A stretch of 52,414 bases of DNA from a bacterium (lineage in GTDB: Bacteria > JAJVIF01 > JAGGVT01): NCBI GenBank assembly GCA_021157815.1, contig JAGGVT010000156.1, positions 1 through 52,414 on the forward strand, given 5' to 3'. Of the stretch, positions 5,841 through 30,917 are shown piece after piece. The position numbers and the translations under genes are program-made. A model generated the notes under the pieces. That model was not told where the DNA came from and searched no databases. It worked only from the letters and a program-made list of their open reading frames with translations. Position 1 is the stretch's first letter. Each line of letters opens with the position of its first letter.

Positions 5841-7235
5841 ATGATGAAAAGACAGCTTATTATAATACTGGTGATTAACGCTATCGCTCTTGCGGTGCTG
5901 GGGAATCATGGGCCCACGACAACGCGCGAGGCGCTGGGGCTTTTCGCGATGGCGAATATCGCTGACAGCCGGACGGTGGTTCTGCCGTCGGCGTTTGGGC
6001 ATTATCAGGAAGCTGTTAAAATTGATAATGACAAATATCTCGCGCCGCAGCCTTTATGGCAGCAGATTGGCGGTTCGATTTCATATGAAATTGCGAAAGT
6101 GTTTTTCGGCGTTGAGCATGACTGGGATGGCCTTCGGCGATTCTACAGGATTGCATCGTACCTGGGCAACCTGATAGCATCGACGATGCTGATAATCCTG
6201 TTCGCACGAGCACTGGAGGTCAAGGGTGTCAGGGGAAAGGAGATTCTTCTGATGCTTGTCCCGCTGGCATTTTTCAGCCTTGTTTTTACCGCCGGCATGG
6301 TTCTGCAGGTTCATCTTTTTGTCGCGGCGCTTTGTTTCTGGGCGCTTCATGAGATCAACACGGGAGTTTACAGGATTAATCGCGATTTGCCGTCCTGGAA
6401 ATCGTTCATTTTAGCCGGAGTTCTTCTGGCGTTTGCCGGATGCCTGTCCATTCCCGCAATAGGCGTAGGGGTTGGTTTTCTCGCGATGTTCATCACGCAG
6501 AAAGATAAACGATTCGCGCGCGCGGTTGTGAACATGATCGTTGGAGCGCTGATTCCGATTATTCTCACAGCGATTGTAATCGCGATTTTCTCCAAACAGG
6601 TTGGCGGATTCATCCCTCCATGGCCTGAGGCGGTGGTGAGGGGCGATGACAGTCCGGGTGCGGTTATCAGATACTTCTTCCATTCAACAATTGGATTCAA
6701 CGGTTTCTTTCTATATTGCCCGTTGGCGCTGATTGGAGTTCTGTCGCTAGTGAAGAGATTGAATCATTTCCAGAGGCTGGCTGAAAAGAAAAAGAAACTC
6801 GATCACTACGCGCGCGGGCAGTCATTGATAGCGATGTCGGTTTACTGGGGCGGAATTCTCAGCCTTGTCCTGTTCTGGCTCGCGGCATTGATGAACGGTA
6901 TTCCGCCAAATTTCACACCGGAACATCTCCAGATGGCGTCAATTAAAATCGGCGGAAGTTCAATCGCGCTGGCATCAAATCTGCGCTCCTACGGCACCAT
7001 GCAGCTTCTGTTTCTCCTTCCGCTTCTGCATTATTTCAACCTTCACATTTTCAAGGAGCGTCCATTTGCCAAATTCAAGGTGTTCTATCATGAAGCTGTT
7101 AGGATTGGCGCTCTTGTCGCGATTGTCGGGCTGGCATCGCCGGCAGGAGGGTATCTGGTGCCGTTTATCTGGTCGCTGAACCAGATTGCGCTGTCGGTGA
7201 CATCGTATTTCCCGATGGGGACGTTGTTGTGGTGA
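5841..7235 (+). CDS. Multi-pass membrane protein, probable GT-C-fold glycosyltransferase-like
   Basis: About 10-11 hydrophobic segments, an N-terminal TM followed by an external loop, a GFFLYCP motif; 8 nt upstream of a polyprenol-P-mannose synthase. Confidence 0.5.
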   Translation: MMKRQLIIILVINAIALAVLGNHGPTTTREALGLFAMANIADSRTVVLPSAFGHYQEAVKIDNDKYLAPQPLWQQIGGSISYEIAKVFFGVEHDWDGLRRFYRIASYLGNLIASTMLIILFARALEVKGVRGKEILLMLVPLAFFSLVFTAGMVLQVHLFVAALCFWALHEINTGVYRINRDLPSWKSFILAGVLLAFAGCLSIPAIGVGVGFLAMFITQKDKRFARAVVNMIVGALIPIILTAIVIAIFSKQVGGFIPPWPEAVVRGDDSPGAVIRYFFHSTIGFNGFFLYCPLALIGVLSLVKRLNHFQRLAEKKKKLDHYARGQSLIAMSVYWGGILSLVLFWLAALMNGIPPNFTPEHLQMASIKIGGSSIALASNLRSYGTMQLLFLLPLLHYFNLHIFKERPFAKFKVFYHEAVRIGALVAIVGLASPAGGYLVPFIWSLNQIALSVTSYFPMGTLLW

Positions 7236-7243
7236 TGGTATAA

Positions 7244-7978
7244 ATGAAAACGCTGATTATCATACCGACATACAAGGAAAAAGAGAATGTGCCTAATCTC
7301 GTTCCGCGAGTGCTTGAACAGGACAAGGGTGTCGAAATTCTTTTCATCGATGACAACTCACCCGATGGCACAGGTGAAATCATAGATGGAATCTGTGCTG
7401 AAAATCCGAGAGTGCATGTAATCCATCGCGAGGGGAAACTGGGACTCGGGACAGCGTATGTAACCGGATTCAAATGGGTGCTTGAAAGGGATTACGGTCG
7501 CGTTTTTGAAATGGATGCCGATTTCTCGCATGATCCGAATGACATCCCGCGGCTTATCGCGGCAAGCAACGAATATGACCTGGTAATCGGTTCAAGGTTT
7601 GTGGGCGGAATCCGTATCATGAACTGGCCTTTCAAGCGACTGCTTCTATCGATGATGGCAATGGTTTATGTCAAATGGATTACGGGGCTTAAACTTGAGG
7701 ACCCCACTAGCGGATTCAAATGCTACAACCGCCGTGTCCTTGAGGGTATTGACCTTGATCGAATACGCTCAAACGGATATTCGTTCCAGATTGAAACCAA
7801 CTACAAATCGAAACTGGCAGGATTCACAACCATAGAGGTTCCAATCGTTTTCACGGAACGCGCGGATGGTGTTTCGAAGATGAATAAGAAGATAGTTTTC
7901 GAGGCAATCTGGATAGTATATAAGTTACGAGTGTATGGAATCCTGAGATGTCTGCTCAGACGAAAAGGCAAGCCGTGA
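7244..7978 (+). CDS. Polyprenol monophosphomannose synthase (GT2, Ppm1/DPM1-like)
   Basis: IIPTYKEKEN, DDNSPDGTG, GKLGLGTAY, EMDADFSHDP, DPTSGFKCY, SNGYSFQIE, FTERADGVSKM. Confidence 0.9.
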   Translation: MKTLIIIPTYKEKENVPNLVPRVLEQDKGVEILFIDDNSPDGTGEIIDGICAENPRVHVIHREGKLGLGTAYVTGFKWVLERDYGRVFEMDADFSHDPNDIPRLIAASNEYDLVIGSRFVGGIRIMNWPFKRLLLSMMAMVYVKWITGLKLEDPTSGFKCYNRRVLEGIDLDRIRSNGYSFQIETNYKSKLAGFTTIEVPIVFTERADGVSKMNKKIVFEAIWIVYKLRVYGILRCLLRRKGKP

Positions 7979-8583
7979 TGCAAATTGCCATACAGGATGA
8001 AACAGCCTGTCTTTAAGCGGTATTTAAGCTGCGTAAAAATTTGTCAATTTTCAAATAATGATGAAAATTGCATCATAAAATTGAAATCTCGTTGAGTTAA
8101 ATCTGCATTGTCGTTTCGGAATCTCTTAGAAAACGATTAAATTAAATCAGATTATAGTACGATTTAATGTATAACAGGAGTATTTCAGAAAAAGTTATGT
8201 CATATTGGACATTTCGTTGAATTATTTTCATTTCGGGCATATGCTGGCAATGAAATTGTTATAACATAAGGCGTCGTTATCCCTGGAATGCCCCCTTTCC
8301 TCATTAGAAGGCCTGGGAAAGGGGGATTTGAAAAATAGTATTAACTTTTATATAATGAAAAGTATTATTTTAAAAAGTTGGGAAGTTTAATTTAACCAAA
8401 GGGGAGAGGAGTTAAATGTGAGATAGTGTTTTCGAAACTGGCGCGGGTTCCATCAGGGGCGCGTTAGTTTGTGTGCATTTTTGGCGATGCTATAAAGGTT
8501 GCTCTTTATTTGCATGGGCGATACTTTTTTAACGAAGTACAAACGTGGAGGTTAAGGAATAAACCTGGAGGTTAATTAAAATA

Positions 8584-11317: not shown

Positions 11318-12946
11318 ATGAGAGCATTAAGAAGTAAAATATCTGAATTAATCTCCTCTGATGCTGGTTTTACGCTTCTTGAAGTTGCGTTTGCCGGTGC
11401 GATAATGGTTATTGTCGGACTTGCTTATCTTGGAACCATCTCTCAGAGCATTTCAATCGCGCAGCTTTACACGGATCAGAACCAGGCGAATATATTAATC
11501 GAACGCGAGATAGAAGTTCTTAGAAATACGAAATTCGATACGATTCCCTTTAAGCAAACATCAGAACCGGACAAGCTCGAGGAAGTTCCGGATTATTACG
11601 ACAATATTGCAATCGCCAATCTTGATCCACTTGAACCGGGCTTTGTCGGGTCAAGCGGCGATCAGCTTGATTGCGACGATTTCAACGTGTTCGATAGTGT
11701 TCGTGCCAGCGATGAAAATAGCAAACGATGGATGGCTGTTGAAAATGGGCCTCTTGTTACAGCCGGCAGTTTTGTGCCAAGAACTGATGAGCCAATTATC
11801 ATCGATAACCCGGACGATCCAACTGAACCAATCATTATCAATCCACAGGATTATCAGTTTCCCATGGAGATTAACAGCGAAAGCCAATATGTTTATGTTG
11901 CTTTCCAGAAGTTGCAGAAAATTCACAGGATTATTTACGATAACCGGTTTAATGTTCGAGGAGACGATTCGCTTCCTGATACGGATATTGATTACCGATG
12001 CCAGCGAAACAGCATCTGGCAGAGGGATTATCAGATTTTCATTTCAGCCGATAGTGAAATAATGCCCGGTCTCCCATTCAGGCCTGATTACAATTCAACC
12101 GAGGTAATCCAGGAAGAAACGGAGCTGGGATACGGTTCAACGGGATTAATTGAGGTTTACAATAACTTTGAAGAACCGCTTGAAGCTACCGTTCTCGGTG
12201 TGGCGAATATATCTGTGGAAACGGATTTTGATTCCACATACCATTATCCTTATGCAACCGAGCTTGAAGCGTATGGTTACAAACTGGCAACATCCTATAA
12301 GGAGCGGTATGTGTTCGAAAATGGCGATGTTCATGTAGGCAACTATATAATGTTCATGCCCAAATACCTTGATTCCGGTTTCGACCTTTTCAGGCGGATT
12401 TATCTGGTTGAGGGTGAAACTGATTTCCCGCCCACACTGCAAAAACAGCCTTTGTACAGGATTCAGCTGAAGATTTACATGCATGACGATTCACGCAACA
12501 CGGATAGTTTTGTGAAGGAATTCTGGTGGCAGGAGGACGACAAGGAAATCATGGAATTTACCATGACCCTGGCAAGGAAAGTTACACCTGCTCAGGATAA
12601 CCTTCCGGGCCTGCAGGATTTGCCAAGGCATACCTACTATTATAACGATGAAGATGCCGAGTTTTCCTATACTATTCCGGGTGCGAATCGAATAAGGGCG
12701 CATTTTAGCACATTCGAACTGCAGAATTATCCGGATACCGATTACTTGGAGTTTTATGACAAGACGGGTGACCAGTACGGTGGACAGTATTTTGGGACCA
12801 TGATATCGTTATTCAGCCTTGGCCCATACAGCCCGTGGGTTGATGGTGATACAATTAAAATTCAATTCAAATCAGATGATTATGCGTCCAGTATTCCGAA
12901 CGCGAATCTTGACGGATTTGAAGTTGACTTTGTTGAAATTGATTAA
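11318..12946 (+). CDS. PilV-like minor pilin with discoidin/F5-8-like and C-terminal CUB-like domains
   Basis: SDAG|FTLLEVA prepilin motif; GGGAG RBS before ATG 11318; C-terminal YTIPGANRIRAHFSTFEL...DYLEFYD...SPWVDGDTIKIQFKSD...GFEVDFVE. Confidence 0.75.
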   Translation: MRALRSKISELISSDAGFTLLEVAFAGAIMVIVGLAYLGTISQSISIAQLYTDQNQANILIEREIEVLRNTKFDTIPFKQTSEPDKLEEVPDYYDNIAIANLDPLEPGFVGSSGDQLDCDDFNVFDSVRASDENSKRWMAVENGPLVTAGSFVPRTDEPIIIDNPDDPTEPIIINPQDYQFPMEINSESQYVYVAFQKLQKIHRIIYDNRFNVRGDDSLPDTDIDYRCQRNSIWQRDYQIFISADSEIMPGLPFRPDYNSTEVIQEETELGYGSTGLIEVYNNFEEPLEATVLGVANISVETDFDSTYHYPYATELEAYGYKLATSYKERYVFENGDVHVGNYIMFMPKYLDSGFDLFRRIYLVEGETDFPPTLQKQPLYRIQLKIYMHDDSRNTDSFVKEFWWQEDDKEIMEFTMTLARKVTPAQDNLPGLQDLPRHTYYYNDEDAEFSYTIPGANRIRAHFSTFELQNYPDTDYLEFYDKTGDQYGGQYFGTMISLFSLGPYSPWVDGDTIKIQFKSDDYASSIPNANLDGFEVDFVEID

Positions 12947-13088
12947 TATATGATACGTTTGAGATTTGAGTTATAATCGGATTTATGAGAGTATTAGAGG
13001 TTATTATAAAGTGTAAACTTTATTAAATGATGGGGAATAAGCAGTTAAATGAAACTGCGGAGGTTCGTGGAGAAAAGGCAAGTTTAAA

Positions 13089-13757
13089 GTGGCAAGAGCG
13101 AAATATCAAAATATCCTGACACCATTCCTCAATGAGGATGGGTTTACCTTGCTTGAGGCAGTTATCGCATCCGCGATAACTGCTGGAACGCTGGTTATTG
13201 TTCTGCTGTTCAGCATGCGCTCATTTGAAATAGCGAGCGAGATAAATACTGTGAACGATGTCAATCATTCGTTCAGGCGCACCCAGAGAGCTTTTGTGCG
13301 TGATGTTCAGATGGCGCAGTATTTCTTTTTTGGCGCTGATGTGGATAATGAAAACAATCAGATTCCAAATGAGTTTATTGACAGAAGAGTTTTGACAGTT
13401 GGCCGCGAGAATGAAGATGGTGAGATGATCTGGTCGCGGTACGCGGTAAAAATTGGTACCGAGACAACAATATATTATCTTCTTGTTACTACAAACGAAC
13501 TTGAAGGCGCTGAACATTTCGAGACGAATATCATCGCCACAAATGTGCAGGACATGTATTTCGTTTACTATGACGAGGATGATATTGAAACAACAAAGGC
13601 TGAGGATGTTCGTCGAATTGAAATGACACTTGTTCTCGAAGAGAATAATGTTACAGAAATGATGCATTTCTCTTCGACTCTCAGGGGAAAGAATCTTGGA
13701 GTCGCCCTTCCTGATGAGAATATTGAAGTTCATCAGAATACGAACTTTGTGAAATAA
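13089..13757 (+). CDS. PilW/PulJ-like minor pilin
   Basis: NEDG|FTLLEAVIA; FVRDVQMA; IATNVQDMYFVYYD...VRRIEMTL C-terminus typical of PilW-like proteins; GTG start. Confidence 0.75.
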   Translation: MARAKYQNILTPFLNEDGFTLLEAVIASAITAGTLVIVLLFSMRSFEIASEINTVNDVNHSFRRTQRAFVRDVQMAQYFFFGADVDNENNQIPNEFIDRRVLTVGRENEDGEMIWSRYAVKIGTETTIYYLLVTTNELEGAEHFETNIIATNVQDMYFVYYDEDDIETTKAEDVRRIEMTLVLEENNVTEMMHFSSTLRGKNLGVALPDENIEVHQNTNFVK

Positions 13758-13768
13758 AACAGCGAATT

Positions 13769-14302
13769 ATGAACTTTTTTGAAAGACATACAAATCACCT
13801 TTTGGGCAATGCCTACGATGACAGCGGTTATACGTTAGTCGAAATGCTGTTTGTATGCATGATTATCGTAACAATTGCGATGATGAGCATGGGAGCATAC
13901 AGCAAGCAGAGGAAGTTCGGAATTGAGTCGATTTGTGTCACCAAACTCAAGCAGATTGCGCAGTATCAGGAATCATACAGAGACATTGGCGACCCGTCGT
14001 TGAATCCTGATGCATCATACGGAACGTTTTTCAATTTGCAGAATGCCGGGTTCATTCCATCGTGCTTTGTGTCGGCTGATAATGAAGCTCACGATGTCGA
14101 AGCGTTTATTAGGTATTACAAGATAGAGATTGTACGATCACCGACAGGACTGACCGAGGAGCCTGATAGAAACCAATATATGGTATTTGCTTCACCGATA
14201 GGGGCGCCGTACAAGAAAATGCGGATTTTCATGATGCAGGAAGATGGTGAGGTTTATTTCTTTTCAAACAATACTGACGGTGCGCGTATAGTCTGGGAAT
14301 AA
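13769..14302 (+). CDS. Type IV pilin paralogue 1
   Basis: DDSG|YTLVEMLFV prepilin motif plus hydrophobic alpha1. Confidence 0.85.
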   Translation: MNFFERHTNHLLGNAYDDSGYTLVEMLFVCMIIVTIAMMSMGAYSKQRKFGIESICVTKLKQIAQYQESYRDIGDPSLNPDASYGTFFNLQNAGFIPSCFVSADNEAHDVEAFIRYYKIEIVRSPTGLTEEPDRNQYMVFASPIGAPYKKMRIFMMQEDGEVYFFSNNTDGARIVWE

Positions 14303-14346
14303 TGTGCATATTACTGTCAGCGGTTTCCGCGGGACAGGAGCCTGAT

Positions 14347-15929: not shown

Positions 15930-15980
15930 TTTTTACAAGGCTGTTGTTTGATAAAAAAACAAAAAGAGCGGAAGCGCGTT

Positions 15981-16475: not shown

Positions 16476-16515
16476 TGAAATCGGGATGATGAAAATAAAT
16501 TCGAGGTATCGTTGC

Positions 16516-18247: not shown

Positions 18248-18260
18248 CAGAGGACAACCG

Positions 18261-19258: not shown

Positions 19259-19290
19259 TGATATTTCAGTATTTTGCTTTTTGGAAAGTC

Positions 19291-19899: not shown

Positions 19900-19921
19900 A
19901 AACAGGATTAAATCAGGTGGC

Positions 19922-22674: not shown

Positions 22675-23466
22675 ATGCTGAAGATTTACCTACAGATATT
22701 TGGCACGCTTGCGTTGGGTTTGATAATTCTGTTGAATTATAACGTCTTTATGAAAAAACCCAACAAAGAGAAGATAGTGGAACTGCAAAAAGAGATGAAA
22801 ACTCTTGAGGTAACAGCGCAGACACTTGACAAAGTACTGAATCATCGCCCTCATTTTGGCACGCTTGAGAATTTTCAATCGCAGGATCTCGATGATGTTC
22901 GTGTGTTTTATGCGGACTCTTTTAATGAACCGGCGTTTATGGGTAAGCTGCAAAAGCTGGTTGACCTTTCAGGATGCACAACAAACGGAATTATCGTTGG
23001 GAATATCAAAGGAGTATCGAATCCTTTGAAATATGAGTTTTTTAAAACCAAACAGAAGGAAAACCTGGAAAAGAGCATTAACTCGTTTGTAAGCACCATG
23101 GATGAATATGCCGGTAATACCGCAAAATGGCAGTCGATTGTTGGTGATAACAGCGATTATTCATCAAGATTGGTGTTTTACCATTCGATATCAGGAGGAA
23201 AGAAATTTCCATCTTCGATGAATAAGGGATTTGAGGTTCACAGGTTTAAACTGAATCTTAAGGGCAATTACACAAGCTGCAAGAAATTCCTGTATCTCGT
23301 CAGCAGAAACAGGCCATTTACGGAAGCCATTGTTCATTCATTTGTACCAATAAATGAAAAGCAGGGCGTTGAAAAGATGTTTGCCTGCCGCGTGACAATC
23401 CTTACGTATAGGGACAAGAATGAGAAGATGCACCCAATACAGAAAATGGTGGATGTTCAGGTTTAA
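22675..23466 (+). CDS. pilO: PilO-like protein
   Basis: N-terminal TM plus coiled coil, FKLNLKGNYTSCKKFL motif; position after pilN. Confidence 0.7.
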   Translation: MLKIYLQIFGTLALGLIILLNYNVFMKKPNKEKIVELQKEMKTLEVTAQTLDKVLNHRPHFGTLENFQSQDLDDVRVFYADSFNEPAFMGKLQKLVDLSGCTTNGIIVGNIKGVSNPLKYEFFKTKQKENLEKSINSFVSTMDEYAGNTAKWQSIVGDNSDYSSRLVFYHSISGGKKFPSSMNKGFEVHRFKLNLKGNYTSCKKFLYLVSRNRPFTEAIVHSFVPINEKQGVEKMFACRVTILTYRDKNEKMHPIQKMVDVQV

Positions 23467-23515: not shown

Positions 23516-24448
23516 ATGAACAAGAAAAATACAAAAAGAACAGACAAGTGGGCTATGTTGCTCATAGTTGCCGGAATCATTCTTGGGATAAATCTTTTCG
23601 TTGCGGTGTTGAGCCCTGACTGGACGAATACAGTGCAGGAAAACGCTGTAGGCAGGCTGGATGCATATTTCAATAGCAAAGTGGTTTTAAGCGAAAGTGA
23701 TACGCATGCGGTTACCGCCGGGCAGGGTGGAGTTAACGTTCAAAGAGCCAGAGATAATGCTAAGAGAGCAAGGAGAGATATCGAGGGTGGAGGTTCTCTG
23801 AACTCAGGAACTACAGAAAGCGCGGAAACACAATCTCCAGCAGCAGGATCAATTGCTGGTGAAAAACCGCCGCCACCGCCTCCTGCTGATTCGCCTGCTA
23901 AAAAAGGCGCCAAAGGCAAACAGGAAATCGACCCGGTAGTTCTGAAAAAAGCGCTTAAATATTTCCAGGATTCACTTTCTGACAGGGATGTTATCTGGGA
24001 AGGGCAAACCGAACCTGACAGGCCTTACGTCTCAAAATCATTCAGAGATAATCCGTTCGACAAGGTTGAGGAAATAAATATTGGCTCGGTTCTAGAAGGA
24101 CTAAATCAGATTCCGTCGGAACCATTCTATCCTCCGCCGGGTGAGTCTAAAAGAATCACCCCGGACGAACTTGAGGAATATCTTAAAACCGTCAGCCTTC
24201 AGGGTATCATTGTTATCGATGATCGGTTTTACGCCGTTATGAGATCTGGCCCAAGACATTTCACCAGAGCGGTGGGTGATGAATTCAAGGACAAGTTTGT
24301 TATTAATGTGGTTGATATAAGCTTTGAAAACGTATTGCTCTCAGATGAATTTGGCAACAAGGGCCTGATTGGTTTTGATTACGCGCGCGGATTTGAGGCT
24401 CAATCCATTGATAATGTGCTGTATTTATCGCACTATGGTAAGAAATGA
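23516..24448 (+). CDS. PilP-like (GspC HR-like) protein with TM anchor and Pro-rich linker
   Basis: RDNPF motif, C-terminal LQGIIVIDDRFYAVM...VGD...VVDI beta domain; between pilO and the secretin. Confidence 0.6.
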   Translation: MNKKNTKRTDKWAMLLIVAGIILGINLFVAVLSPDWTNTVQENAVGRLDAYFNSKVVLSESDTHAVTAGQGGVNVQRARDNAKRARRDIEGGGSLNSGTTESAETQSPAAGSIAGEKPPPPPPADSPAKKGAKGKQEIDPVVLKKALKYFQDSLSDRDVIWEGQTEPDRPYVSKSFRDNPFDKVEEINIGSVLEGLNQIPSEPFYPPPGESKRITPDELEEYLKTVSLQGIIVIDDRFYAVMRSGPRHFTRAVGDEFKDKFVINVVDISFENVLLSDEFGNKGLIGFDYARGFEAQSIDNVLYLSHYGKK

Positions 24449-24674: not shown

Positions 24675-27600
24675 TTGGAATTCTTAACAAGGCGAAATAT
24701 GAAAACGATACAAATGCCGGGCAGTTTACATAGAGCGATGTCGGTATATAAGAACATCAGTAATCGAAACAACAAAAGCCGAGGAGTTTACCACTCGATG
24801 AGCCTTCCGAACGACCGAAGGATAAAAGCAATACGAAACTTAACCGGATTGTGCATACTTTTCGTGGTTCTAAGTTTCACGCAGGCCTCACGGGCAAATC
24901 CCATGGCCTCCACCACTCTGGATGATATCCGCTTTACCACATGCGGAGAGGGGTGTATCCAGGTGATTGTCAGCGGGTCCGGTGAACTGGATCCCGGACA
25001 GGCAACCTATATCGCGAATCCAGCGAGACTTGTTTATGATTTCAAGGATACAGTCCTTGGATATAATGATGGTCGCACGCGCAAATTCCCGATCGAGGTT
25101 GGTGACCTTAACACAATTGGGATTTCCCAATACAAGCGTCATCCGGATGTGGTCCGGCTTGTTCTGTACTTCAGAAGCGGTAATGAGAAAAGCCTGCGTA
25201 ACACGATTCTGGCATCGAATGATGATGGCAAATTGGTTATGACATATTCTCTCGATGGCACCATGCCGGGAGTCGAAAAGATTCCGGGCGATAGTAATGG
25301 CCTTATCGACAAGCTTCTTCATCAGAGGATGGGTCCCGAAAGAGACCGTTTTGACCTTCATGGTGACATTGCCTTTGAGGATCCCGTTGTACGGTTTGTT
25401 AAAGGCGGATTAATCATTAACTTGAAAGGTATTCAATTTAAGGTGCCGGCGGAATCAGGCAATAACATGCAGGTACCTGTCAGTGGCGCGTTGATAGATG
25501 AAATACAGGTTGTGAATCAGCCTGATGGCGCTACTTTGTTCCTTCGAATCAAGGATTCCGCAAGGACATACCTGGTTGATTATGAGATTGATCGCAATGA
25601 TAGCATGTCATTGGGACTTGAAGTGCATCGATCATATCAGTCAGATTCGGGTAAGGAACTGGCTATACCGAAACCCAAACCTGTAACATCCAGCGATGGC
25701 AAAGTTACGGGCATGGTTTATGTGCTTGGAAGTTCGATGGAGAAAGGCGACTCCGTCGATGCCTCAGGCGTGTCAAGGATTATCAGGATCCAGTATCAGC
25801 CGCTTTCAATCGGTGAGAGATTCATCATTGAGGCTACCGGCGATTTCAATCCCAGTTTCCAGAAGCTCGGATTCCCAAATCGCCTGAACATGAGATCGGA
25901 CAACACGACTGTGATATTGCCCCGCGAAGCTGATGATAAGTTCCAGGTGAGAATTGAAGGCGCGATGTCCAAACTTATGAAGGTGTTCTTGAAGGATCAT
26001 GACGGCACACCTGAATCTGTAATCCAGTTTTATTATGAAATAGAAGAAAACGAAGATATTCAGTATGACCTGTATATCACAGATACCGAGAATGTTTATT
26101 ATCTTGATTTGATTCCAATAGCGATGTCTTATTCGGCAACTCCGCCTGTCAAGGTTGATATTCCGCTGAAACCCGAACAAGCCCCCATTGATTTGAAACC
26201 AGTAGTGACTATTCCGGTTGAACCGGTTAAAGCTGAGAAAGTCGAGACGGTAGAAGCGGAGACGGTTGAGCCCGAAGTGGAACCAGTCGAGGATGATGTT
26301 GTTTCCTTCAATATTCCCAATGAAACGGAATATGAATCGGTTGTCAGCATTCCAATATCACCCGACAAAATTGAAGAGACAGCTGAACCGGCAGAACCTG
26401 TAATGCCGATTGAACCTGAGATTGAAAAAGAACCTGAGGTAGTTGTCGAAAAGCCGGTTGAATCCATTGTCGAAATTGAAAAAAATTGTGAAGCCGCGCC
26501 TGAGCCAGTTAAGGCTGCTCCAGTGGAAACCTCACCAGTCAGGATTGAGTTTGTCAAACTTGATAATTTTGACAGGTTTATAATCTCAAGCGATACTCCA
26601 ATTGATGAATACAACCATAACGAGCTTAACTATCCGAGCCGGTTCGCGATTGAATTCCCGGGAAGGTCTATCGATTTCAATGCGCTGGAATCCGGCAAAT
26701 CGAGATACATTCAAGGTAACGCGACTGAAAGCGTTAGAATCATTGCGCGTGATTTACCTGTTCAAAAATCTGTATTCTACATATTCCTGAATGGCAAATG
26801 GGATGAGACTGACTGTGAAATATCAGGAAGCCCCAACAGGATTGTTATTGATGTCCGCTCGCTTGCTTCTCAAATTGAGGAACAGATAGATGAAACAATT
26901 ACAGAACCCACACCGGCGTTTTTCGAACCGGATATCATAGAGGTTGAACCTGAACCTGAACCTGTGGTTGAGATACCAAAGGTTGTTAACCCGGAGGTTG
27001 TTAAACCTGTAACTGTTGCAACAGTTGAACCAGAGGAAGAAGAAAGCAGGAGCATGTCTTTCCTGCTTGATGATGTTGAGCTGGACAAAGACGATGCAAT
27101 TGAAGAAGTTATCATAGAAGCGCCTGTAGTCGAGGTTATAGAGGAAGAGCCGATTGAGGAAGAGGTTGCTCCACTCGTTGAGGATGAGCCGATTCAAGAG
27201 GCTATTGTTGAAGAAGAAGACGATTTCATTGAAATAAAAGTCTCTGAAACCAAAGAGGAGAAACCGGAAGAGACTCAGGTTGCGGCGCTGTACCATAAGA
27301 CAGATGCTTTCCCGCTAAAGAAAGGCGAGATTAAGAAAGCGGATATATGCATTAATTCCATTAAGTTAAATGGGGGCACAGGGCTAGGCCAGATTATTGT
27401 TTACACAGATGGTGGCAGGATACCTGAGCCGGATGTTAAATGGTGGAACTATCCTGTCAGATTAAGTTTCGATTTCGATGATATTGGCGTTGATCTGAAT
27501 GGCGTTGATCCGACCAAATGGAGCAGCGATATTGACAGTACGGTAATAAGCAGGATTCAGGTAGATCAACATTCCGGCGGGCGAGTTCCGCTTGGCGCGT

Positions 27601-29198
27601 CGATGAATCTTTATCTCAACCCGGGATATGACAGTTCCAATATTTCCGTCAGCTTTGAACCTGTCAGCGATTCAGCTCTTAAAATTTCGTTTGTAGAACC
27701 GGGACAACTTGTTGCTCAGGTTGAACCGGAAGAAATAGAAGAACCCAAGGAACCGGAAAATACAATCAAGATTACAGATGAGGATTTCACAATCGAGGAC
27801 CTTGAAAGCGAACCTGCGGAGGAAGCCAAATCGGAAACTACGTTAGTGGCTGGCACAGGCCGTTATCTTGCCGGTTCAAAAGTTGCAGTGGTATCTGAGG
27901 ATGGTTCGGATGGCGAAGGTGCGGCTGAAGAGCCGCTTGTTACGATGGTTATGCAGAATGCGGAAATCGAGGACCTCCTGTTCCTGATAGCGGAGAATAC
28001 AGGCATCGACATCTCGATTGAATCAAGATCTGTAAGAGGCACAATTTCCCTGAAAATAACGAAAAAACCAATTAGTGAAGTGTTTGACCTTATTGCAACA
28101 CAGGGTAATTTTAAATGGAACAACTACAAGGGAACATACATATTCGGTAGTGAGGATTTCATTTGGGATATCCCCGGCGTGATAACACCTCGTGTTATCA
28201 GATTGAAATACGCTGACCCGCTTAGGGTGCGCCAGGTGCTTACTCAGCTTCGACTAGGTGGCGCCAGGTCTGTAACGCTTTATCAGGCCGGGAATATTGG
28301 CAGTTCAAGCGGCAGGGGACAGGTTCCAACCGCGCAGAATGCACTTATTCTCAAGGGTGACACTCAGCAGTTGAGAGCCATGATGGATGTTATCAAGCAG
28401 ATTGACGTTCCGCCGCTTCTGATAAAAGTCAACATGAAAGTTATTGAGTATTCTCTCGCCAATGATAAAAACACCGGATTCAACTGGTCGATAATGCCGC
28501 GAGGCGGATCATCAGGGGGAACCGATAAAGGGTTTATCTCGTTTAGTTTAGCAGAGAAAGCTGATCCGGGAGGTCTGCCGCTGACTTTCCAGGGATTCAA
28601 ACGGCAGTTCCCGTTTGATATAAGCATGATCTACAACTTCCTGGAAGACAAAGGCGATGCTAAACTTCTTGCCGATTCAACATTGACAGTAACCAATGGC
28701 GGTCGCGGTGAGTTCTTTGTCGGTGAAACGGTACCGTATAGAAGCACGTTCCAAGTGTCTGATTTCGGGCGTGTAACACAGCGAGTCCAGCAGGAAAGCG
28801 TTGGTATCAATATGAGTTTCCAGGCTCAGGCATCGGATGACGGCATGATTACGTTGTATATTGACCCGAACATTTCAAACCTGAAAGAGATTACCGATAT
28901 TGGTCCCAGGACGTCCAACAAGACGTTTAAAACGACGATTCGAATACCATCAGGGCAGCCATACGCTATTGGCGGCCTGATTAACGAGAGCGACAGGACA
29001 TCCTATGACAAAATCCCGTTCCTGGGTGATCTTCCGTTGCTTGGCAATTTGTTCAAGGGTAAGAGCAGGAGCGTTCAGAGAAGTGAAATGGTTATTGTGT
29101 TCACGCCTGAAATAGTGCATGATGCGGCAACAAGGAAGTACTCAGATATTTATGATTTCGAGCCTGATGAAGGCGTGGCTTTCAGCCTTAATGATTAA
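24675..29198 (+). CDS. pilQ: Giant PilQ-type secretin with about 5 AMIN domains (true start possibly ATG 24798)
   Basis: Signal peptide; AMIN motifs (NPARLVYDF, FPNRL, YPSRFAIEF, YPVRLSFDF); N0 domain (MQNAEIEDLL), N3 (IRLKYADP); secretin core (VGETVPY, IGGLI, KIPFLGDLPLLGNLFK, EMVIVFTPEIV). Confidence 0.9.
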   Translation: MEFLTRRNMKTIQMPGSLHRAMSVYKNISNRNNKSRGVYHSMSLPNDRRIKAIRNLTGLCILFVVLSFTQASRANPMASTTLDDIRFTTCGEGCIQVIVSGSGELDPGQATYIANPARLVYDFKDTVLGYNDGRTRKFPIEVGDLNTIGISQYKRHPDVVRLVLYFRSGNEKSLRNTILASNDDGKLVMTYSLDGTMPGVEKIPGDSNGLIDKLLHQRMGPERDRFDLHGDIAFEDPVVRFVKGGLIINLKGIQFKVPAESGNNMQVPVSGALIDEIQVVNQPDGATLFLRIKDSARTYLVDYEIDRNDSMSLGLEVHRSYQSDSGKELAIPKPKPVTSSDGKVTGMVYVLGSSMEKGDSVDASGVSRIIRIQYQPLSIGERFIIEATGDFNPSFQKLGFPNRLNMRSDNTTVILPREADDKFQVRIEGAMSKLMKVFLKDHDGTPESVIQFYYEIEENEDIQYDLYITDTENVYYLDLIPIAMSYSATPPVKVDIPLKPEQAPIDLKPVVTIPVEPVKAEKVETVEAETVEPEVEPVEDDVVSFNIPNETEYESVVSIPISPDKIEETAEPAEPVMPIEPEIEKEPEVVVEKPVESIVEIEKNCEAAPEPVKAAPVETSPVRIEFVKLDNFDRFIISSDTPIDEYNHNELNYPSRFAIEFPGRSIDFNALESGKSRYIQGNATESVRIIARDLPVQKSVFYIFLNGKWDETDCEISGSPNRIVIDVRSLASQIEEQIDETITEPTPAFFEPDIIEVEPEPEPVVEIPKVVNPEVVKPVTVATVEPEEEESRSMSFLLDDVELDKDDAIEEVIIEAPVVEVIEEEPIEEEVAPLVEDEPIQEAIVEEEDDFIEIKVSETKEEKPEETQVAALYHKTDAFPLKKGEIKKADICINSIKLNGGTGLGQIIVYTDGGRIPEPDVKWWNYPVRLSFDFDDIGVDLNGVDPTKWSSDIDSTVISRIQVDQHSGGRVPLGASMNLYLNPGYDSSNISVSFEPVSDSALKISFVEPGQLVAQVEPEEIEEPKEPENTIKITDEDFTIEDLESEPAEEAKSETTLVAGTGRYLAGSKVAVVSEDGSDGEGAAEEPLVTMVMQNAEIEDLLFLIAENTGIDISIESRSVRGTISLKITKKPISEVFDLIATQGNFKWNNYKGTYIFGSEDFIWDIPGVITPRVIRLKYADPLRVRQVLTQLRLGGARSVTLYQAGNIGSSSGRGQVPTAQNALILKGDTQQLRAMMDVIKQIDVPPLLIKVNMKVIEYSLANDKNTGFNWSIMPRGGSSGGTDKGFISFSLAEKADPGGLPLTFQGFKRQFPFDISMIYNFLEDKGDAKLLADSTLTVTNGGRGEFFVGETVPYRSTFQVSDFGRVTQRVQQESVGINMSFQAQASDDGMITLYIDPNISNLKEITDIGPRTSNKTFKTTIRIPSGQPYAIGGLINESDRTSYDKIPFLGDLPLLGNLFKGKSRSVQRSEMVIVFTPEIVHDAATRKYSDIYDFEPDEGVAFSLND

Positions 29199-29237: not shown

Positions 29238-29825
29238 TTGAAAATGCGAATAATAAATATGGTGATGGTTCTATTGGTTCTGATTGCTTTGACAGGATGT
29301 GAAGCGATCACTGGCAACAAAGGCGGACCACCTAACCCGTATTATTTCGAAATGAAGGGTTCGTGTGGTGGTGATGTTGTTACATTAGATGGACCTTTAA
29401 TCGGCACGAAGACTTTCATGTATATTGATTTTGAAACAGGCAATGTGAATGATGAATTCGACATTTCCATATTGATTGACTCTCCTTCTGTGCCGGCGGC
29501 GGATAGACCCATTCCATTGATTGATACTGTTGTCTTCAGAACTATTAGTACGAAACCGCATTCAGCCAATGGTGTCAAACGAGCTGAATTTTATTTGTAC
29601 GCGCCATGTTTCAGTGATGGCCCTTACTCGATCACTTTTGTTATTACTGATCCTCATGGTGACAGCGGAACTTTCTTTGCCGGGTTTACCATCGGTGAAT
29701 CATGTATGTTTGCAAGTGATCCATGCAAGTGTGTAACTCAGTGCGGAGAGTGCACGTTGTTACGCTACAAGTTGAGTGATCGATGCTATTGTAATTGTCC
29801 GTTATGGAATGAGAAATGTGAGTAA
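29238..29825 (+). CDS. Lipoprotein with Cys-rich C-terminus
   Basis: Lipobox LIALTG|C; C-terminal SCMFASDPCKCVTQCGECTLLRYKLSDRCYCNCPLWNEKCE; GGAGG RBS. Confidence 0.7.
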   Translation: MKMRIINMVMVLLVLIALTGCEAITGNKGGPPNPYYFEMKGSCGGDVVTLDGPLIGTKTFMYIDFETGNVNDEFDISILIDSPSVPAADRPIPLIDTVVFRTISTKPHSANGVKRAEFYLYAPCFSDGPYSITFVITDPHGDSGTFFAGFTIGESCMFASDPCKCVTQCGECTLLRYKLSDRCYCNCPLWNEKCE

Positions 29826-29876
29826 ATTTAATAAAATTACTTTGAACCTATTATCCCTTCGAGGAGATAAGAGTAT

Positions 29877-30857
29877 ATGATTAAGAAAACCATACTTGGA
29901 ATAATTTTATCGGGAATCCTGATTTTTCCCGCGTATGCACATGACTGTGCCCAACCTTCTGATTCGGGCAGTTCCTGTCACGGAGATAAAGCCATTTCAA
30001 ATCATGCGCCCATGCAGGACTGGATGATGCATGCTATTATGCCGTCAAATCCGCTTGATGCGGAAGCCAAGGAATTCATCGCTTCAGATGTCAAGAGGAT
30101 TGCCATTCTGCCATTCAGCGACTATTCATCCATATCGCCGCTGCCATCCGAATCAGGCACGTATTGGGCATCCAGGCGTATCCATGATTTCATGAGCGCT
30201 GAATTTATCAAGATGGGGAAACTGGTTGTTCCTTATGACGTGATGTCAGCCGCACTTGCTGAAATCCGTGGGGAGAAAGCCGCTGAACTTACAGGCATGG
30301 CTTTCCTGCAAAACCAGATGACGGACCTGGCGATATCCGGTGAAGCGCAGAAAACTGTTGCTGAGGTGATGGTCAAAGGCGGACAGGTTAGCGCCGCGTC
30401 GGGTGTTTATTCACTTGACCTTACAGCGGATGAGATTGTCCTGCTTGGAAAAGTTCTCAACGTGGATGCGGTATTCATGGGCAGTATCAGTGATTACGGA
30501 ACTGATGAATATATCAAAGCTGATGCCCGCACTTTCATCCCGCCATTCCTGGGGGTGTGGAATCCAACTCAAAAAGCCCAGATTCGAATGCTTGTATATT
30601 TGTACGAGACTGGAAATGGCCAGTTGATATGGGCTTCGATGGAGGAAACATCCTACGAGCCAACTTTCCCCTTGTTATCAAGCGCGAACAAGAACTATGA
30701 GAAACTGAACCGGCGCCTTGCGGAAAATATAGTGAATCATTTCAGGGATGTTTTTCTGAACATGAAGTTTACTGGCAGATTCAAACCATCTCCAACAGGT
30801 GGACCCGGTACAGTCAGGCGGGAGAAGGATATCAGGATTATTATGAAACAGAAATGA
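29877..30857 (+). CDS. Exported protein, CsgG/LpoB/GNA1162-like fold
   Basis: Signal peptide AYA|H; KRIAILPF, LGKVLNVDAVFMGSISDYG, LYETGNGQLIWA motifs. Confidence 0.6.
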   Translation: MIKKTILGIILSGILIFPAYAHDCAQPSDSGSSCHGDKAISNHAPMQDWMMHAIMPSNPLDAEAKEFIASDVKRIAILPFSDYSSISPLPSESGTYWASRRIHDFMSAEFIKMGKLVVPYDVMSAALAEIRGEKAAELTGMAFLQNQMTDLAISGEAQKTVAEVMVKGGQVSAASGVYSLDLTADEIVLLGKVLNVDAVFMGSISDYGTDEYIKADARTFIPPFLGVWNPTQKAQIRMLVYLYETGNGQLIWASMEETSYEPTFPLLSSANKNYEKLNRRLAENIVNHFRDVFLNMKFTGRFKPSPTGGPGTVRREKDIRIIMKQK

Positions 30858-30886
30858 TATCTTTGCGTTTATAACCATGAAATCTT

Positions 30887-30917
30887 AAGGGGAGCATTCG
30901 CTCCTCTTTTTTCTTTT
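30887..30917 (+). terminator. Rho-independent terminator of the pil operon
   Basis: AAGGGGAGC-ATTC-GCTCCTCTT followed by a T-run. Confidence 0.7.

Follow-up and report, generated by a model that had tools for sequence, protein, structure and literature searches.

We found that the window, a 52,414-nucleotide stretch of DNA from an uncultured vent/seep bacterium, carries what is probably a functional type IVa-like pilus (T4aP-like) locus, one that is fixed in a single class of uncultured bacteria; we put the probability of this reading at roughly 65%. The class is represented by 14 species genomes. The initial annotation had described a run of about 25 kb of co-oriented pilus genes with 15 pilins, ending in a terminator, and its gene content, order, strand and counts were all confirmed, in support of a type IVa-like filament locus (Table 1). 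All genes are on the + strand, in the order polytopic membrane protein, GT2, PilX-like, PilV-like, PilW-like, twelve small prepilins and PilM, then PilN/O/P-like proteins, an AMIN secretin (1466-1507 aa), a lipoprotein, a periplasmic protein and the terminator. The terminator-like hairpin proper occupies 30887-30908, with the T run directly after it, and the GT1 glycosyltransferase gene on its 3' side keeps its position in 5/5 relatives. The locus is collinear in all five relatives examined (families f1, f2 and f3). In 25 genes compared with those of a congener (G001), dN/dS lies at 0.07-0.33 in the twelve small pilins and at 0.07-0.36 in the other genes, and the locus is therefore not vestigial.

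Table 1. Features of the pilus locus and its flanks, with their positions in the window.
Feature	Position	Strand	Evidence or remark
Polytopic membrane protein, GT-C-like candidate glycosyltransferase, 464 aa	5841..7235	+	at least 9 hydrophobic segments
GT2 glycosyltransferase, polyprenyl-phosphate-sugar synthase type	7244..7978	+	PF00535 1.5e-28
Sigma-70-like promoter match, upstream of pilin operon	8328..8356	+	TTGAAA-17-TATAAT, 11/12 positions; consensus match only
PilX/GspK-like tip pilin (predicted), four CUB-like modules, 881 aa	8584..11229	+	N-terminus and AF2 model/Foldseek
PilV/GspI-like modular pilin, C-terminal CUB-like module	11318..12946	+	GFTLLE motif; ORF opens at 11168, probable start 11318
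PilW/GspJ-like minor pilin (by position)	13089..13757	+	GFTLLE motif; position kept in 5/5 relatives
Small prepilin p1	13769..14302	+	G|YTLVE motif; orthologue clade support 99
Small prepilin p2	14302..14847, probable start 14347	+	prepilin motif; clade support 97
Small prepilin p3	14851..15399	+	G|MTLAE motif; clade support 99
Small prepilin p4	15465..15929	+	N_methyl 2.2e-8; GspG model 1e-13, below cut-off; clade support 88
Small prepilin p5	15948..16475, probable start 15981	+	N_methyl, prepilin motif; clade support 98
Small prepilin p6	16441..16992, probable start 16516	+	N_methyl, prepilin motif; clade support 98
Small prepilin p7	17073..17549	+	N_methyl, prepilin motif; clade support 99
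Small prepilin p8	17777..18247	+	N_methyl, prepilin motif; clade support 99
Small prepilin p9	18219..18734, probable start 18261	+	N_methyl, prepilin motif; clade support 99
Small prepilin p10, candidate major pilin	18821..19258	+	shortest mature form, 130 aa
Small prepilin p11	19258..19899	+	G|HTLVE motif; clade support 96; sister to p12, support 100
Small prepilin p12	19784..20518, probable start 19922	+	prepilin motif; clade support 83
PilM	20880..22073	+	PF11104 (PilM_2) 2.5e-25; no TM segment
PilN-like bitopic protein	22060..22656	+	one N-terminal TM segment
PilO-like bitopic protein	22675..23466	+	one N-terminal TM segment
PilP-like protein (by position; weak assignment)	23516..24448	+	one N-terminal TM segment
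Giant secretin	24798..29198	+	1466 aa by public gene call P0014; longest ORF opens 24675, 1507 aa
Lipoprotein, 195 aa, pilotin candidate	29238..29825	+	lipobox LTGC; Cys-rich C-terminus
Periplasmic protein, possible CsgG/LpoB/FlgT_M-type domain	29877..30857	+	position kept in 5/5 relatives
Intrinsic-terminator-like hairpin and T run	30887..30917	+	9-pair stem (5 GC pairs), then TTTTTTCTTTTG
GT1 glycosyltransferase, conserved downstream neighbour	31430..32647	+	PF13692 9.8e-7

We compared the locus with T4aP systems that combine PilMNOPQ with FimU-PilVWX or PilHIJK minor pilins. With the machines of P. aeruginosa, M. xanthus and Neisseria it shares PilM, PilN/O/P-like proteins and an AMIN-bearing secretin in canonical order. 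The likeness extends to the head of the pilin operon (a Glu5-less K/X-like, an I/V-like and a J/W-like pilin) and to the presence of PilB, PilC and PilT in the genome. It differs from these systems in carrying twelve more conserved pilins, well above the expected handful, in the CUB-like modules of its predicted tip pilins, in a secretin about twice the usual length and in its unlinked motor genes; no PilY1-type gene was found, in a search that had no working positive control, and none of the locus proteins passes a curated equivalog model, those for T4aP included.

Of the 15 pilin-like proteins, 14 have a prepilin signal, made up of a G|[FYMH]T[LI]xE motif and, after it, a hydrophobic helix. 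The sole exception is the PilX-like protein, whose PilX-type N-terminus (ERG|ASLVAIAII) has no Glu5; the subunit that caps a tip complex is expected to be without this residue (PMC10191384). Its AF2 model (pLDDT 69.5) has a helix at residues 14-73, a pilin-type sheet up to about residue 216 and beta modules beyond. The best Foldseek match of this model is cubilin CUB5-8 (E 2.9e-10), and parts of the model within residues 217-345 and 691-846 align with single CUB domains over 97-104 residues (VIA-align Z 9.1-9.7, rmsd 1.9-2.8 A). The PilV-like protein matches the gspI model weakly (0.0054) and its own model is poor outside the C-terminal module (pLDDT 46 overall). Within that module, residues 429-542 align with CUB structures over about 100 residues (Z 10-11, rmsd 2.3-3.0 A); 49 of the 50 structure matches listed are CUB proteins, as are the best 10 of 12 matches of its sequence profile, which reaches cubilin at 7.6e-4. 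Profile-profile comparisons show the modules to be mutually homologous (X_D4 with V_C 96.9%, X_D2 with V_C 94.5%, X_D1 with X_D2 92.3%), while the controls, the pilin module and the middle part of PilV, score at most 1.7%. As judged from the models, the conclusion holds that the four modules of the PilX-like and the one of the PilV-like protein are CUB-like at the level of fold.

The initial annotation had read about four CUB domains in the PilX-like protein and a discoidin plus a CUB domain in the PilV-like one. The former stands at the level of fold and not in Pfam, where neither a CUB nor a discoidin family was matched at E<=0.01 in a search of the locus proteins. Of the latter, the single C-terminal CUB-like module survives; the putative discoidin region (pLDDT <50) is a lead from one match, ranked 50th, to the C-terminal domain of a fucosidase. 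The modules share the beta-sandwich fold of metazoan CUB domains (cubilin, C1r/C1s, MASPs, neuropilin a1/a2, PCPE-1), and the sequence pattern F..F.LE....D....D....G......G....i.F.SD.....GF is visible in HMMER alignments, but here Pfam CUB does not match and the context is a bacterial pilin. CUB domains carry disulfides; these are absent from residues 429-542 of the PilV-like protein because this region has no cysteines. PilX-like homologues number only 13 among 5.77e9 proteins. The PilX-like protein is present in 13/13 genomes of the same class and 0/27 others, and the PilV-like one in 13/14 class genomes. For the PilW-like protein, Pfam and NCBIfam gave no family match above threshold.

The fusion of adhesion-type modules onto the PilX-like and PilV-like pilins is supported, but the architecture first taken as distinct has precedent, modular type IV pilins being described as widespread (264 architectures; PMC8179133). 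Examples include S. sanguinis PilB (vWA module) and PilC (lectin module), ETEC CofB and T2SS GspK, whose C-terminally grafted functional modules are predicted to lie at the tip and bind ligands (PMC8179133), a description that would suit the PilX-like and PilV-like proteins as well. What differs here is the module, a CUB-like beta sandwich, of which one pilin has four copies and another has one; the main text of PMC8179133 does not contain "CUB", and a literature search returned no paper combining "CUB domain" and "minor pilin". We propose that the Glu5-less PilX/GspK-like, PilV/GspI-like and PilW/GspJ-like proteins form a priming tip complex, which would display the five homologous modules as an adhesin in the stead of PilY1.

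The twelve small-prepilin ORFs (145-244 aa) span 13769-20518. Pfam N_methyl is matched at E<=0.01 in 11 of them, eight passing the gathering score, and Glu5 is kept in all 72 small-pilin sequences of six genomes. The positional groups form single clades in 12/12 cases (SH-aLRT >=95 in nine). The twelve are 20-42% identical to one another (17-37% after residue 30), and each is found 1:1 and in unchanged order in the six genomes, which come from three families, with none lost, duplicated or moved. DNA repeats among them amount to the N-terminal coding motif (60-78% identical), and no invertible-element signature was seen among the twelve genes. Given their separate orthologue clades and low dN/dS, we regard them as an old fixed set and not a switchable cassette array; the suggestion that the pilins are switchable was not supported by these old paralogues.

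One small pilin, p10, appears from its sequence to be the most like a major pilin. It is the best conserved of the twelve, sharing 55-65% identity with other families where the remaining eleven share 36-51%, and has the shortest branches in the pilin tree. Its profile matches the first 57-65 residues of the chains of Geobacter PilA-N (3.6e-14), PilA 6xxd (5.2e-10) and GspG (2.6e-8), and it matches the Myxococcus PilA model at 2.1e-10. Its ATG is preceded at 5 nt by a GGAGG Shine-Dalgarno sequence. Orphan pilins on two other contigs (C90 and C150) group with p10, with a support of only 83. We suggest that p10, perhaps with these orphan relatives, is the main subunit, and that the other eleven conserved pilins would be non-redundant accessory subunits of the same filament. 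The distinctness of p10 in conservation and major-pilin likeness counts against an obligately heteropolymeric filament, in which most or all of the twelve would be structural, in comparable amounts and perhaps in a defined order or lattice; to our knowledge, no filament has more than two major pilins. In favour of a heteropolymer, S. sanguinis has a type 4 pilus of this kind, with two major pilins (PMC10628169). Such a filament would also fit twelve old orthologue groups frozen in order in one tight co-oriented array (junctions short or overlapping), all under purifying selection and all, in six genomes, with Glu5, a canonical alpha1-N and mature lengths typical of their position, but we consider it unlikely.

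We find it less probable still that the twelve are alternative major pilins, picked by regulation and not by recombination to make different fibres under different conditions. Sets of the alternative antigen type are usually gained, lost and reshuffled, whereas this one is intact in six genomes, and internal terminators are unremarkable (19 found, 15 expected). The wide divergence of the globular parts could suit such a use, as could promoter-like matches within the array, though 54 were found where 34 are expected by chance; in Thermus, as PDB titles on components of a wide and a narrow pilus indicate, two major pilins give two different pili.

The machine genes point to the type IVa-like pilus with varying clarity. 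PilM matches positions 5-348 of the 348 of TIGR01175, with 112 bits against a cut-off of 133. PF05137 (PilN) is the only family matched, below threshold, in 6/6 PilN-like orthologues (best 6.9e-4). The PilO and PilP assignments are weak, being made from position and topology only: PF04350 appears in 2/5 PilO-like orthologues at 0.059 or weaker, and the top PDB match of the PilO-like protein, M. xanthus PilO, is not significant (0.36). The PilP-like position holds a 309-332-aa ORF in four relatives (G002, G003, G004 and G007); in G002 an extra 188-aa ORF between it and PilQ gives the sole PF04351 match (0.16).

The giant pilQ-type secretin (about 1500 aa in the initial annotation) was borne out here and in all relatives examined (longest ORFs of 1507-1668 aa). 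It has Pfam Secretin (6e-39), Secretin_N (1.3e-8) and AMIN (4.1e-7) domains; its N-terminal 1090 residues hold one Pfam AMIN and three Glu/Pro-rich linkers, and several further beta-rich modules there look AMIN-like when read by eye. It has 16 close homologues (1143-1763 aa), after which matches drop to 1e-24. Its NCBIfam scores are 156 bits for GspD and 123 bits for PilQ, both below cut-off. This preference for GspD, the best scores of p4, p5, p7, p11 and p12 on the GspG model and a K/I/J-like trio at the operon head, common to T2SS (PMC10191384), would suit a type II secretion-like endopilus. In that case the locus would form no external pilus but a short pseudopilus within the periplasm, by which cargo, perhaps including the large CUB-bearing proteins, is driven through the secretin. 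This is the least likely reading: PilM and PilN are separate genes and not a fused GspL, neither GspC nor a PDZ protein was seen, the secretin bears an AMIN domain, the match to the PilM model runs over its full length and the genome has PilT-type ATPases. The CUB-bearing proteins carry pilin N-termini and are therefore better seen as filament subunits than as free cargo. In the type IVa-like pilus, the fibre would grow below the tip on a PilM-PilN-PilO-PilP scaffold and exit through the secretin, which may be tethered to the wall by its additional AMIN-like modules and acidic linkers.

The lipoprotein is present as described, but its Cys-rich tail is genus-specific and absent from the lipoproteins at the other loci (206-221 aa in the same four relatives); Pfam and NCBIfam searches gave it no family match. 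The label "CsgG-like" for the periplasmic protein is a lead: ESM Atlas lists CsgG/LpoB clusters at 0.90-0.92 and FlgT_M is matched below threshold in 4/5 relatives (best 3.5e-5), with no Pfam CsgG match and no PDB sequence match.

Motor, platform and peptidase genes had been expected elsewhere in the genome. Other contigs of the host assembly indeed encode three PilB/GspE-like, three PilC-like and three PilT-like proteins; there are seven T2SSE matches over cut-off (three PilB/GspE-sized, three PilT-sized and one TadA-like) and four T2SSF proteins. In relative G002 (99% complete), about 183 kb separate the locus from the closest motor or platform gene. The host assembly yielded no PilD. PilD is present in 5/5 relatives, and the gene beside it in G001 has its counterpart 217 bp short of the end of a host contig (C135), so its absence is due to an assembly gap and not to loss. 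The initial annotation had held that the locus would be vestigial if pilB, pilC and pilD were lacking; PilB and PilC are encoded elsewhere, PilD is present in relatives and the genes are under purifying selection. The fourteen prepilins would be cut at G|[FYMH]TLxE by a peptidase encoded elsewhere, and the unlinked PilB/PilC would drive fibre growth.

The polytopic membrane protein, with a loop at residues 25-103 after its first hydrophobic segment, adjoins the locus in all four families, its partner being GT2 in three and UbiA in the fourth (f3). A homologue lies just upstream of the pilus genes on the PilX contig in 12/14 class genomes; that of f3, a 496-aa protein, was matched by hhalign (95%, E 3.8e-8, 419 columns). 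Its earlier label, GT-C-like, is not established, as Pfam and PDB sequence searches gave no match; ESM Atlas matches include clusters with PMT (44% of members) or PMT_2 (11%), and PMT_2 is matched, below threshold, in only 1/10 remote homologues. The synthase called Ppm1-like is a GT2 enzyme, kept in position in G001, G002 and G011, whose best NCBIfam matches (AglJ, PpgS, ArnC) are all far below cut-off and indicate no sugar. In f3 a UbiA prenyltransferase gene precedes the membrane-protein gene; the DPPR synthase Rv3806c, too, belongs to the UbiA family. Since the partner is GT2 or UbiA depending on the family, lipid-linked glycosylation is supported, but the proposed mannosylation from polyprenyl-P-mannose is not supported as to the sugar. 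Pilin glycosylation by a GT-C enzyme has precedent in TfpW of P. aeruginosa group IV, which is encoded beside pilA and uses a lipid-linked D-Araf pathway that includes DPPR synthase, a Rv3806c homologue (bioRxiv 10.1101/2020.04.19.049825). The locus resembles this system in setting a putative polytopic membrane glycosyltransferase beside pilin genes, with a lipid-phosphate-linked sugar. It differs in that the membrane protein (464-497 aa) lacks the large periplasmic domain of TfpW and could not be related by sequence to any named GT-C family, that the partner enzyme varies and that the target is only a candidate. Together with the GT2/UbiA-type lipid-phosphate-sugar enzyme, the membrane protein probably glycosylates a periplasmic component, most plausibly the pilins.

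Type IVa-like pili and modular pilins thus have precedent. What is new is the fixed set of twelve small pilins, the collinearity of the locus, p10 as the candidate major pilin and the switch between GT2 and UbiA partners from family to family. With fifteen pilins in the same order class-wide, one may ask what a single filament does with this many different subunits.

The fifteen pilin genes of this locus are kept in number and in order across related genomes. A search for synteny, suggested by the initial annotation, found the locus collinear in all five relatives compared (G001, of the same genus as the genome carrying the window; G002, of family f2; G003, G004 and G007, of family f3). In each of them the order runs PilX, PilV, PilW, 12 small pilins, PilM, PilN, PilO, a PilP-sized ORF, the secretin (1515-1668 aa in the relatives), a lipoprotein (about 200 aa in the relatives), a periplasmic protein and a GT1 gene. 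A search of 5.77 billion proteins gave only 13 homologues of the large PilX-like protein (E ≤ 1e-3); in a species-level genome set, it is present in 13/13 genomes of the same class and in 0/27 of the others sampled. The PilV-like protein is found in 13 of the 14 class genomes; it is missing from one 79%-complete genome, where the PilX contig breaks off at this gene.

The small pilins p1 to p12, numbered in gene order, can be followed one by one. Each small pilin of the relatives has its closest match in the window at the same position, and in a maximum likelihood tree of 74 mature pilins, labelled by position rather than by best match, all 12 positional groups form single clades (SH-aLRT ≥ 95 in 9/12), a result matched by 0/200 shuffles. 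Within every one of these clades the branching mirrors the relationships of the genomes. Within the window, paralogues share only 20-42% identity; in the comparison with G001, the 12 small pilins have dN/dS of 0.07-0.33 and the 13 other genes compared 0.07-0.36. By gene order, clades, paralogue divergence and dN/dS, the twelve small pilins are an ancient, fixed and non-redundant set. The most interesting aspect of the locus, which is real, conserved, under selection and T4aP-like, is this frozen set of 12+3 pilins. The initial annotation had suggested that the fibre may be heteropolymeric or switchable. We reject the reading as switchable cassettes, since the set is fixed 1:1 in the same order, the DNA repeats among the 12 pilins amount to the N-terminal coding motif (60-78% identical), and no invertible-element signature was seen in the pilin array.

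The spacer between p7 and p8 holds a 72-nt palindrome, a copy of a genome-wide REP-like element (unit AGCCCGGTTTCTCATTAACCGGG) with 93 matches at ≤3 mismatches over the contigs of the genome, often in pairs about 50 nt apart. The same spacer in G001 has no such palindrome and measures 57 bp vs 228 bp in the window.

Open reading frames, Pfam and motif searches confirmed the gene inventory, the gene order and the count of 15 pilins in the initial annotation (see table). All long ORFs between 5841 and 30917 are on the plus strand, and a terminator-like hairpin follows the last gene of the locus. Promoter and terminator scans were less telling: a sigma-54 pattern gave 14 matches in the window vs 23.6 expected, i.e., no signal, and sigma-70 and terminator scans within the pilin array were scarcely above chance. 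The N_methyl model matched 11/12 small pilins at E ≤ 0.01 and exceeded its gathering score in 8/12. By motif search, 14 of the 15 pilin-like proteins carry G|[FYMH]T[LI]xE followed by a hydrophobic helix, i.e., the class III prepilin signal (G|FxxxE) and hydrophobic alpha1-N characteristic of T4aP. Mature small pilins measure 130-190 aa; when the start closest to a Shine-Dalgarno match is taken, their leaders have about 11-22 residues. The one protein outside the motif is PilX-like, with a PilX-type start (ERG|ASLVAIAII) that lacks Glu5; the absence of Glu5 is described in PMC10191384 as a hallmark of the subunit capping the minor-pilin tip complex. Pfam and NCBIfam give it no PilX_N or GspK match. 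The PilV-like protein has a weak match to the NCBIfam gspI model (0.0054), PilW-like is assigned as a J/W-like minor pilin by position only, and no H-like core minor pilin was identified at the locus.

Coordinates of features in the window
Feature	Positions	Strand	Evidence or description
589-aa ORF, upstream of the locus	644-2413	-	Walker-type ATPase motifs, by eye; no Pfam family at E ≤ 0.01
326-aa ORF, adjacent to the former	2494-3474	-	no Pfam family at E ≤ 0.01
GT-C-like candidate	5841-7235	+	464-aa polytopic membrane protein
GT2	7244-7978	+	Pfam PF00535, 1.5e-28
PilX-like	8584-11229	+	881 aa
PilV-like	11318-12946	+	
PilW-like	13089-13757	+	
Small prepilins (n = 12)	13769-20518	+	N-terminal methylation motif in 11/12 (Pfam)
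Palindrome, p7-p8 spacer	17568-17639		REP-like, 72 nt
p10	18821-19258	+	candidate major pilin
PilM	20880-22073	+	Pfam PilM_2 (PF11104), 2.5e-25
Secretin	24675-29198	+	Pfam Secretin 6e-39, Secretin_N, one AMIN domain
Periplasmic protein	29877-30857	+	
Terminator-like hairpin	30887-30908		3' of last locus gene
Tandem repeat	31137-31185		three copies of a ~19-nt motif (GCCGCGGTAAAAAGAAACC-like), between locus terminator and GT1 gene; part flagged on minus strand by terminator scan
GT1, GT2, B12-binding radical SAM enzyme	31430-35185	+, -, -	3' of the locus
Two ORFs	43125-45791	-	resemble flagellar FliG and FliF, by eye

By the resemblance of the last two ORFs to FliG and FliF, the organism may have flagella in addition to pili. 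A look-up of positions 13000-21000 in sequencing runs gave no RNA run; two DNA runs labelled hydrothermal vent metagenome contain 0.96-0.97 of the sequence words of this part and may come from the source sample.

The initial annotation had placed the motor, platform and peptidase genes elsewhere in the genome. For the motor and platform this is borne out. The genome carrying the window (G000; 3.2 Mb in 221 contigs, 90.9% complete, the window being contig C80) encodes PilB, PilC and PilT on other contigs: three PilB/GspE-sized ATPases (C89, C211, C38), three PilT-sized ones (C68, C89, C178) plus one TadA-like, three PilC-like platforms plus TadB/C, and four secretins, of all of which C80 carries only the locus secretin. 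In G002 (99% complete, 4 contigs) the genes are unlinked: the locus lies at C1:1.545-1.585 Mb, the closest ATPase is at 1.768 Mb, and two pilB-pilT-pilC clusters are found at C2:120-127 kb and C1:1.220-1.231 Mb. The prepilin peptidase PilD (PF01478, A24) was matched in 5/5 relatives but had 0 matches in the 90.9%-complete G000. The neighbour of PilD in G001 has a counterpart in G000 (92.6% identity) that ends 217 bp from the end of contig C135, so PilD of G000 would fall across an assembly break. We also reject the reading of the locus as vestigial, which the initial annotation had tied to missing pilB, pilC and pilD: the motors are in G000, PilD is in all five relatives, and dN/dS against G001 stays within 0.07-0.36.

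A PilT-like ATPase fragment lies 3' of PilD in G001 (C56, 2800-3339). Its best G000 matches are only ~41% identical, so G000 may lack a further PilT-type gene, or the assembly may have missed it along with PilD. G000 also has a second PilM-containing cluster adjoining a secretin (C67) and a Tad-like set (C131, C11).

Several traits liken the locus to T4aP. PilM and PilN are separate ORFs, and PilM matches PF11104 at 89.6 bits (cut-off 27) and TIGR01175 end to end at 112 bits, under the cut-off of 133. The putative PilN, PilO and PilP are all bitopic, with a single N-terminal transmembrane segment; PF05137 is the only match of PilN, sub-threshold, in 6/6 orthologues, PF04350 is found for PilO in 2/5 orthologues at 0.059 or weaker, and PF04351 for PilP at 0.16 in one extra G002 ORF. 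The locus encodes an AMIN-bearing outer-membrane secretin with all domains over their cut-offs (Secretin 133.8 bits, Secretin_N 35.4, AMIN 30.5), and the genome has PilT-type ATPases. It nevertheless departs from a clean T4aP: no curated equivalog cut-off is passed, several small pilins score best on the GspG model, and the secretin core scores slightly higher on GspD (156 bits, cut-off 351) than on the PilQ model TIGR02515 (123 bits, cut-off 284). Both scores fall below their cut-offs, and the two models do not tell the secretin subtypes apart. We file the locus as T4aP-like rather than as a certified T4aP member.

The extra length of the secretin is N-terminal. One Pfam AMIN domain and three Glu/Pro-rich linkers (residues ~485-615, 735-875 and 1010-1090) are accompanied by several further beta-rich modules that look AMIN-like by eye, with one weak self-match (900-966, E 0.035). 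The public gene call (P0014) has 1466 aa and fits an ATG at 24798 with AGGAG 5' of it. The core has sixteen close homologues, all of 1143-1763 aa, after which the next match falls to 1e-24. The label CsgG-like for the periplasmic protein did not hold at the level of the family: PF03783 had no match at E ≤ 1 in the window protein and 4 orthologues, and the label draws on ESM Atlas leads only. PDB profile searches with this protein and with PilN returned nothing. PilY1 (PF05567) had no match in G000, an uninformative result because the control was likewise silent in 14/14 genomes.

Among the small pilins, p10 is, on indirect evidence, the best candidate for the major pilin. Its mature form is the shortest (130 aa), its identity to families f2 and f3 is the highest (55-65%, vs 36-51% for the other eleven) and its branches in the tree are the shortest. 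The p10 profile covers the first 57-65 residues of the chains of Geobacter PilA-N (3.6e-14), PilA 6xxd (5.2e-10), which we take to be from Thermus, and GspG (2.6e-8), vs the first 24-34 residues only for other pilin chains, and p10 matches the Myxococcus PilA model at 2.1e-10. A GGAGG lies 5 nt 5' of its ATG; Shine-Dalgarno strength, as a proxy of expression, gives a weak hint in the same direction.

Two orphan short pilins are encoded elsewhere in G000 (C90:14074-14649 and C150:13522-14046); both share 38% identity with p10 and cluster with it (support 83). The genome also has twelve further prepilin-like ORFs of 349-551 aa across contigs C17, C29, C44, C84, C85, C87, C96, C141 and C205, most of them with GspG-like N-termini (GFTLIELLVVITIIGILAA...).

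The initial annotation had assigned CUB domains to the PilX-like and PilV-like proteins. The fold stands, in four modules of the former and one of the latter, but the Pfam CUB model and the cysteines of PilV-like do not. Pfam reports no family at E ≤ 0.01 for either protein, PF00431 included, NCBIfam finds nothing beyond the weak gspI match, and a PDB profile search with PilX-like gave nothing. The AF2 model of PilX-like (from 15 homologues, pLDDT 69.5) opens with a long helix at the N-terminus (14-73) and a pilin-type sheet that runs to about residue 216; beta-rich modules follow. In Foldseek the model is matched best by cubilin CUB5-8 (E 2.9e-10, probability 1.00), then by enteropeptidase, neuropilin and PCPE-1. 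With VIA-align, model ranges 217-345 and 691-846 superpose on single CUB domains at Z 9.1-9.7 (rmsd 1.9-2.8 Å over 97-104 residues), two-domain alignments span 220-526 and 535-846, and 35 chains reach Z ≥ 8. The PilV-like model has a low overall pLDDT (46), with residues 435-542 well modelled; its residues 429-542 match CUB domains at Z 10-11 (rmsd 2.3-3.0 Å, ~100 residues), with CUB proteins making up 49 of the 50 entries listed. A PilV-like profile of 11 orthologues matches cubilin at 7.6e-4, CUB proteins being the top 10 of 12 rows, and the usual CUB sequence pattern is visible in the HMMER alignments.

When the profiles of the four PilX-like modules and of the PilV-like C-terminus were compared pairwise, six pairs gave probabilities of 96.9%, 94.5%, 92.3%, 89.2%, 78.6% and 71.0% and the other four 59.9%, 30.6%, 6.0% and 0.8%; the controls (pilin module, PilV-like middle part) gave ≤1.7%. 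This shows the five modules to be mutually homologous. CUB domains have conserved cysteines that form two disulfides; there is no Cys in the translation of PilV-like residues 429-542. Given the fold matches, the cubilin profile match and the mutual homology, we class the modules, four plus one, as CUB-like domains outside Pfam CUB. The discoidin/CBM32 label of the PilV-like middle part has no Pfam match; CBM32 chains occur among the Foldseek rows, a rank-50 VIA match falls at 190-322, and residues 30-433 are mostly below pLDDT 50.

The head of the locus had been read as a linked mannosylation module with a Ppm1-like synthase. The 464-aa membrane protein, used as query, has matches in only 3/14 class genomes. 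In family f3, a UbiA prenyltransferase (1.3e-18, 7.2e-21) and a 496-aa membrane protein lie directly upstream of PilX, and the latter aligns with the window protein over 419 columns (95% probability, E 3.8e-8). A profile of this f3 protein has a match in 9/9 f3 genomes, which in 8/9 lies immediately upstream of PilX on the same contig. The profile also matches the window protein (2.7e-6). In G011 (family f4) it matches a 485-aa ORF that lies upstream of PilX, with a GT2 (1.7e-29) between the two. All four families thus retain a homologous polytopic protein at the start of the locus. In f1 (the family of the window), f2 and f4 the partner enzyme is a GT2 (adjoining in G000, G001, G002 and G011), and in f3 it is a UbiA (G003, G004), a pairing with a polyprenyl-phosphate-sugar synthase as expected of GT-C enzymes. 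GT2 types make lipid-phosphate-linked sugars in the ArnC/ArnT and Ppm1/PMT pathways, and UbiA types do likewise in the DPPR synthase/Emb or TfpW pathway. The retention of the polytopic protein with either partner strengthens the case for periplasmic lipid-donor-dependent glycosylation tied to the pilus, with pilins as the most plausible target, and argues against naming mannose. The window enzyme itself matches as a general GT2 and not as Ppm1/DPM1: there is no equivalog-level match, the best NCBIfam models being far under their cut-offs (AglJ 57 bits, cut-off 325; PpgS 57, 370; ArnC 53, 529).

Searches of Pfam, NCBIfam and PDB sequences linked the 464-aa protein to no GT-C family, also when a 36-sequence profile was used. 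ESM Atlas leads include PMT and PMT_2 clusters, and a sub-threshold PMT_2 match (0.0014) occurs in only 1/10 remote homologues. The 464-aa protein has at least 9 hydrophobic segments, the first transmembrane one being followed by a loop (25-103) whose E30 is invariant in 7/7 aligned homologues. The most useful correction concerns the linked module: rather than a mannosylation system, it is a conserved GT-C-like candidate whose donor enzymes are exchangeable. The GT1 gene downstream keeps its position in 5/5 relatives and so may be part of the same glycan pathway.

Much of this has precedents. The T4aP parts list is known (PMC10191384), modular pilins with adhesion modules are described as widespread and diverse (PMC8179133), and TfpW is reported as a GT-C enzyme that is encoded beside pilA and glycosylates the pilin (bioRxiv 10.1101/2020.04.19.049825). 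CUB-like modules on minor pilins were not found in print: our literature search gave no paper joining "CUB domain" and "minor pilin", and the main text of the modular-pilin paper (PMC8179133) nowhere mentions "CUB". They would join the list of modules grafted onto pilins, and the locus would be a putative PilY1-less way of arming a pilus tip. Its head makes a second case, independent of the first, in which a polytopic transferase-like protein is tied to pilin genes; here the lipid-sugar partner enzyme has been swapped.

Type IV filaments are usually described as having one major pilin and a few minor ones. Fifteen pilins kept 1:1, in the same order class-wide and under purifying selection, are hard to attribute to redundancy or antigenic variation. 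A speculative reading, to which we give a probability of only about 15%, is a compositionally ordered filament: 12 non-interchangeable pilins, their gene order fixed before the class radiated, would each have a defined place or layer in one fibre, which would end in a two-pilin, five-module CUB-like adhesin cap and be modified by locus-encoded lipid-linked glycosylation with a sugar swapped between families. If true, no type IV filament described so far would be as complex. As the organisms are uncultured, what the locus offers at present is a target for structural studies and heterologous expression, and it is a natural system for asking what role many distinct subunits play in one fibre.
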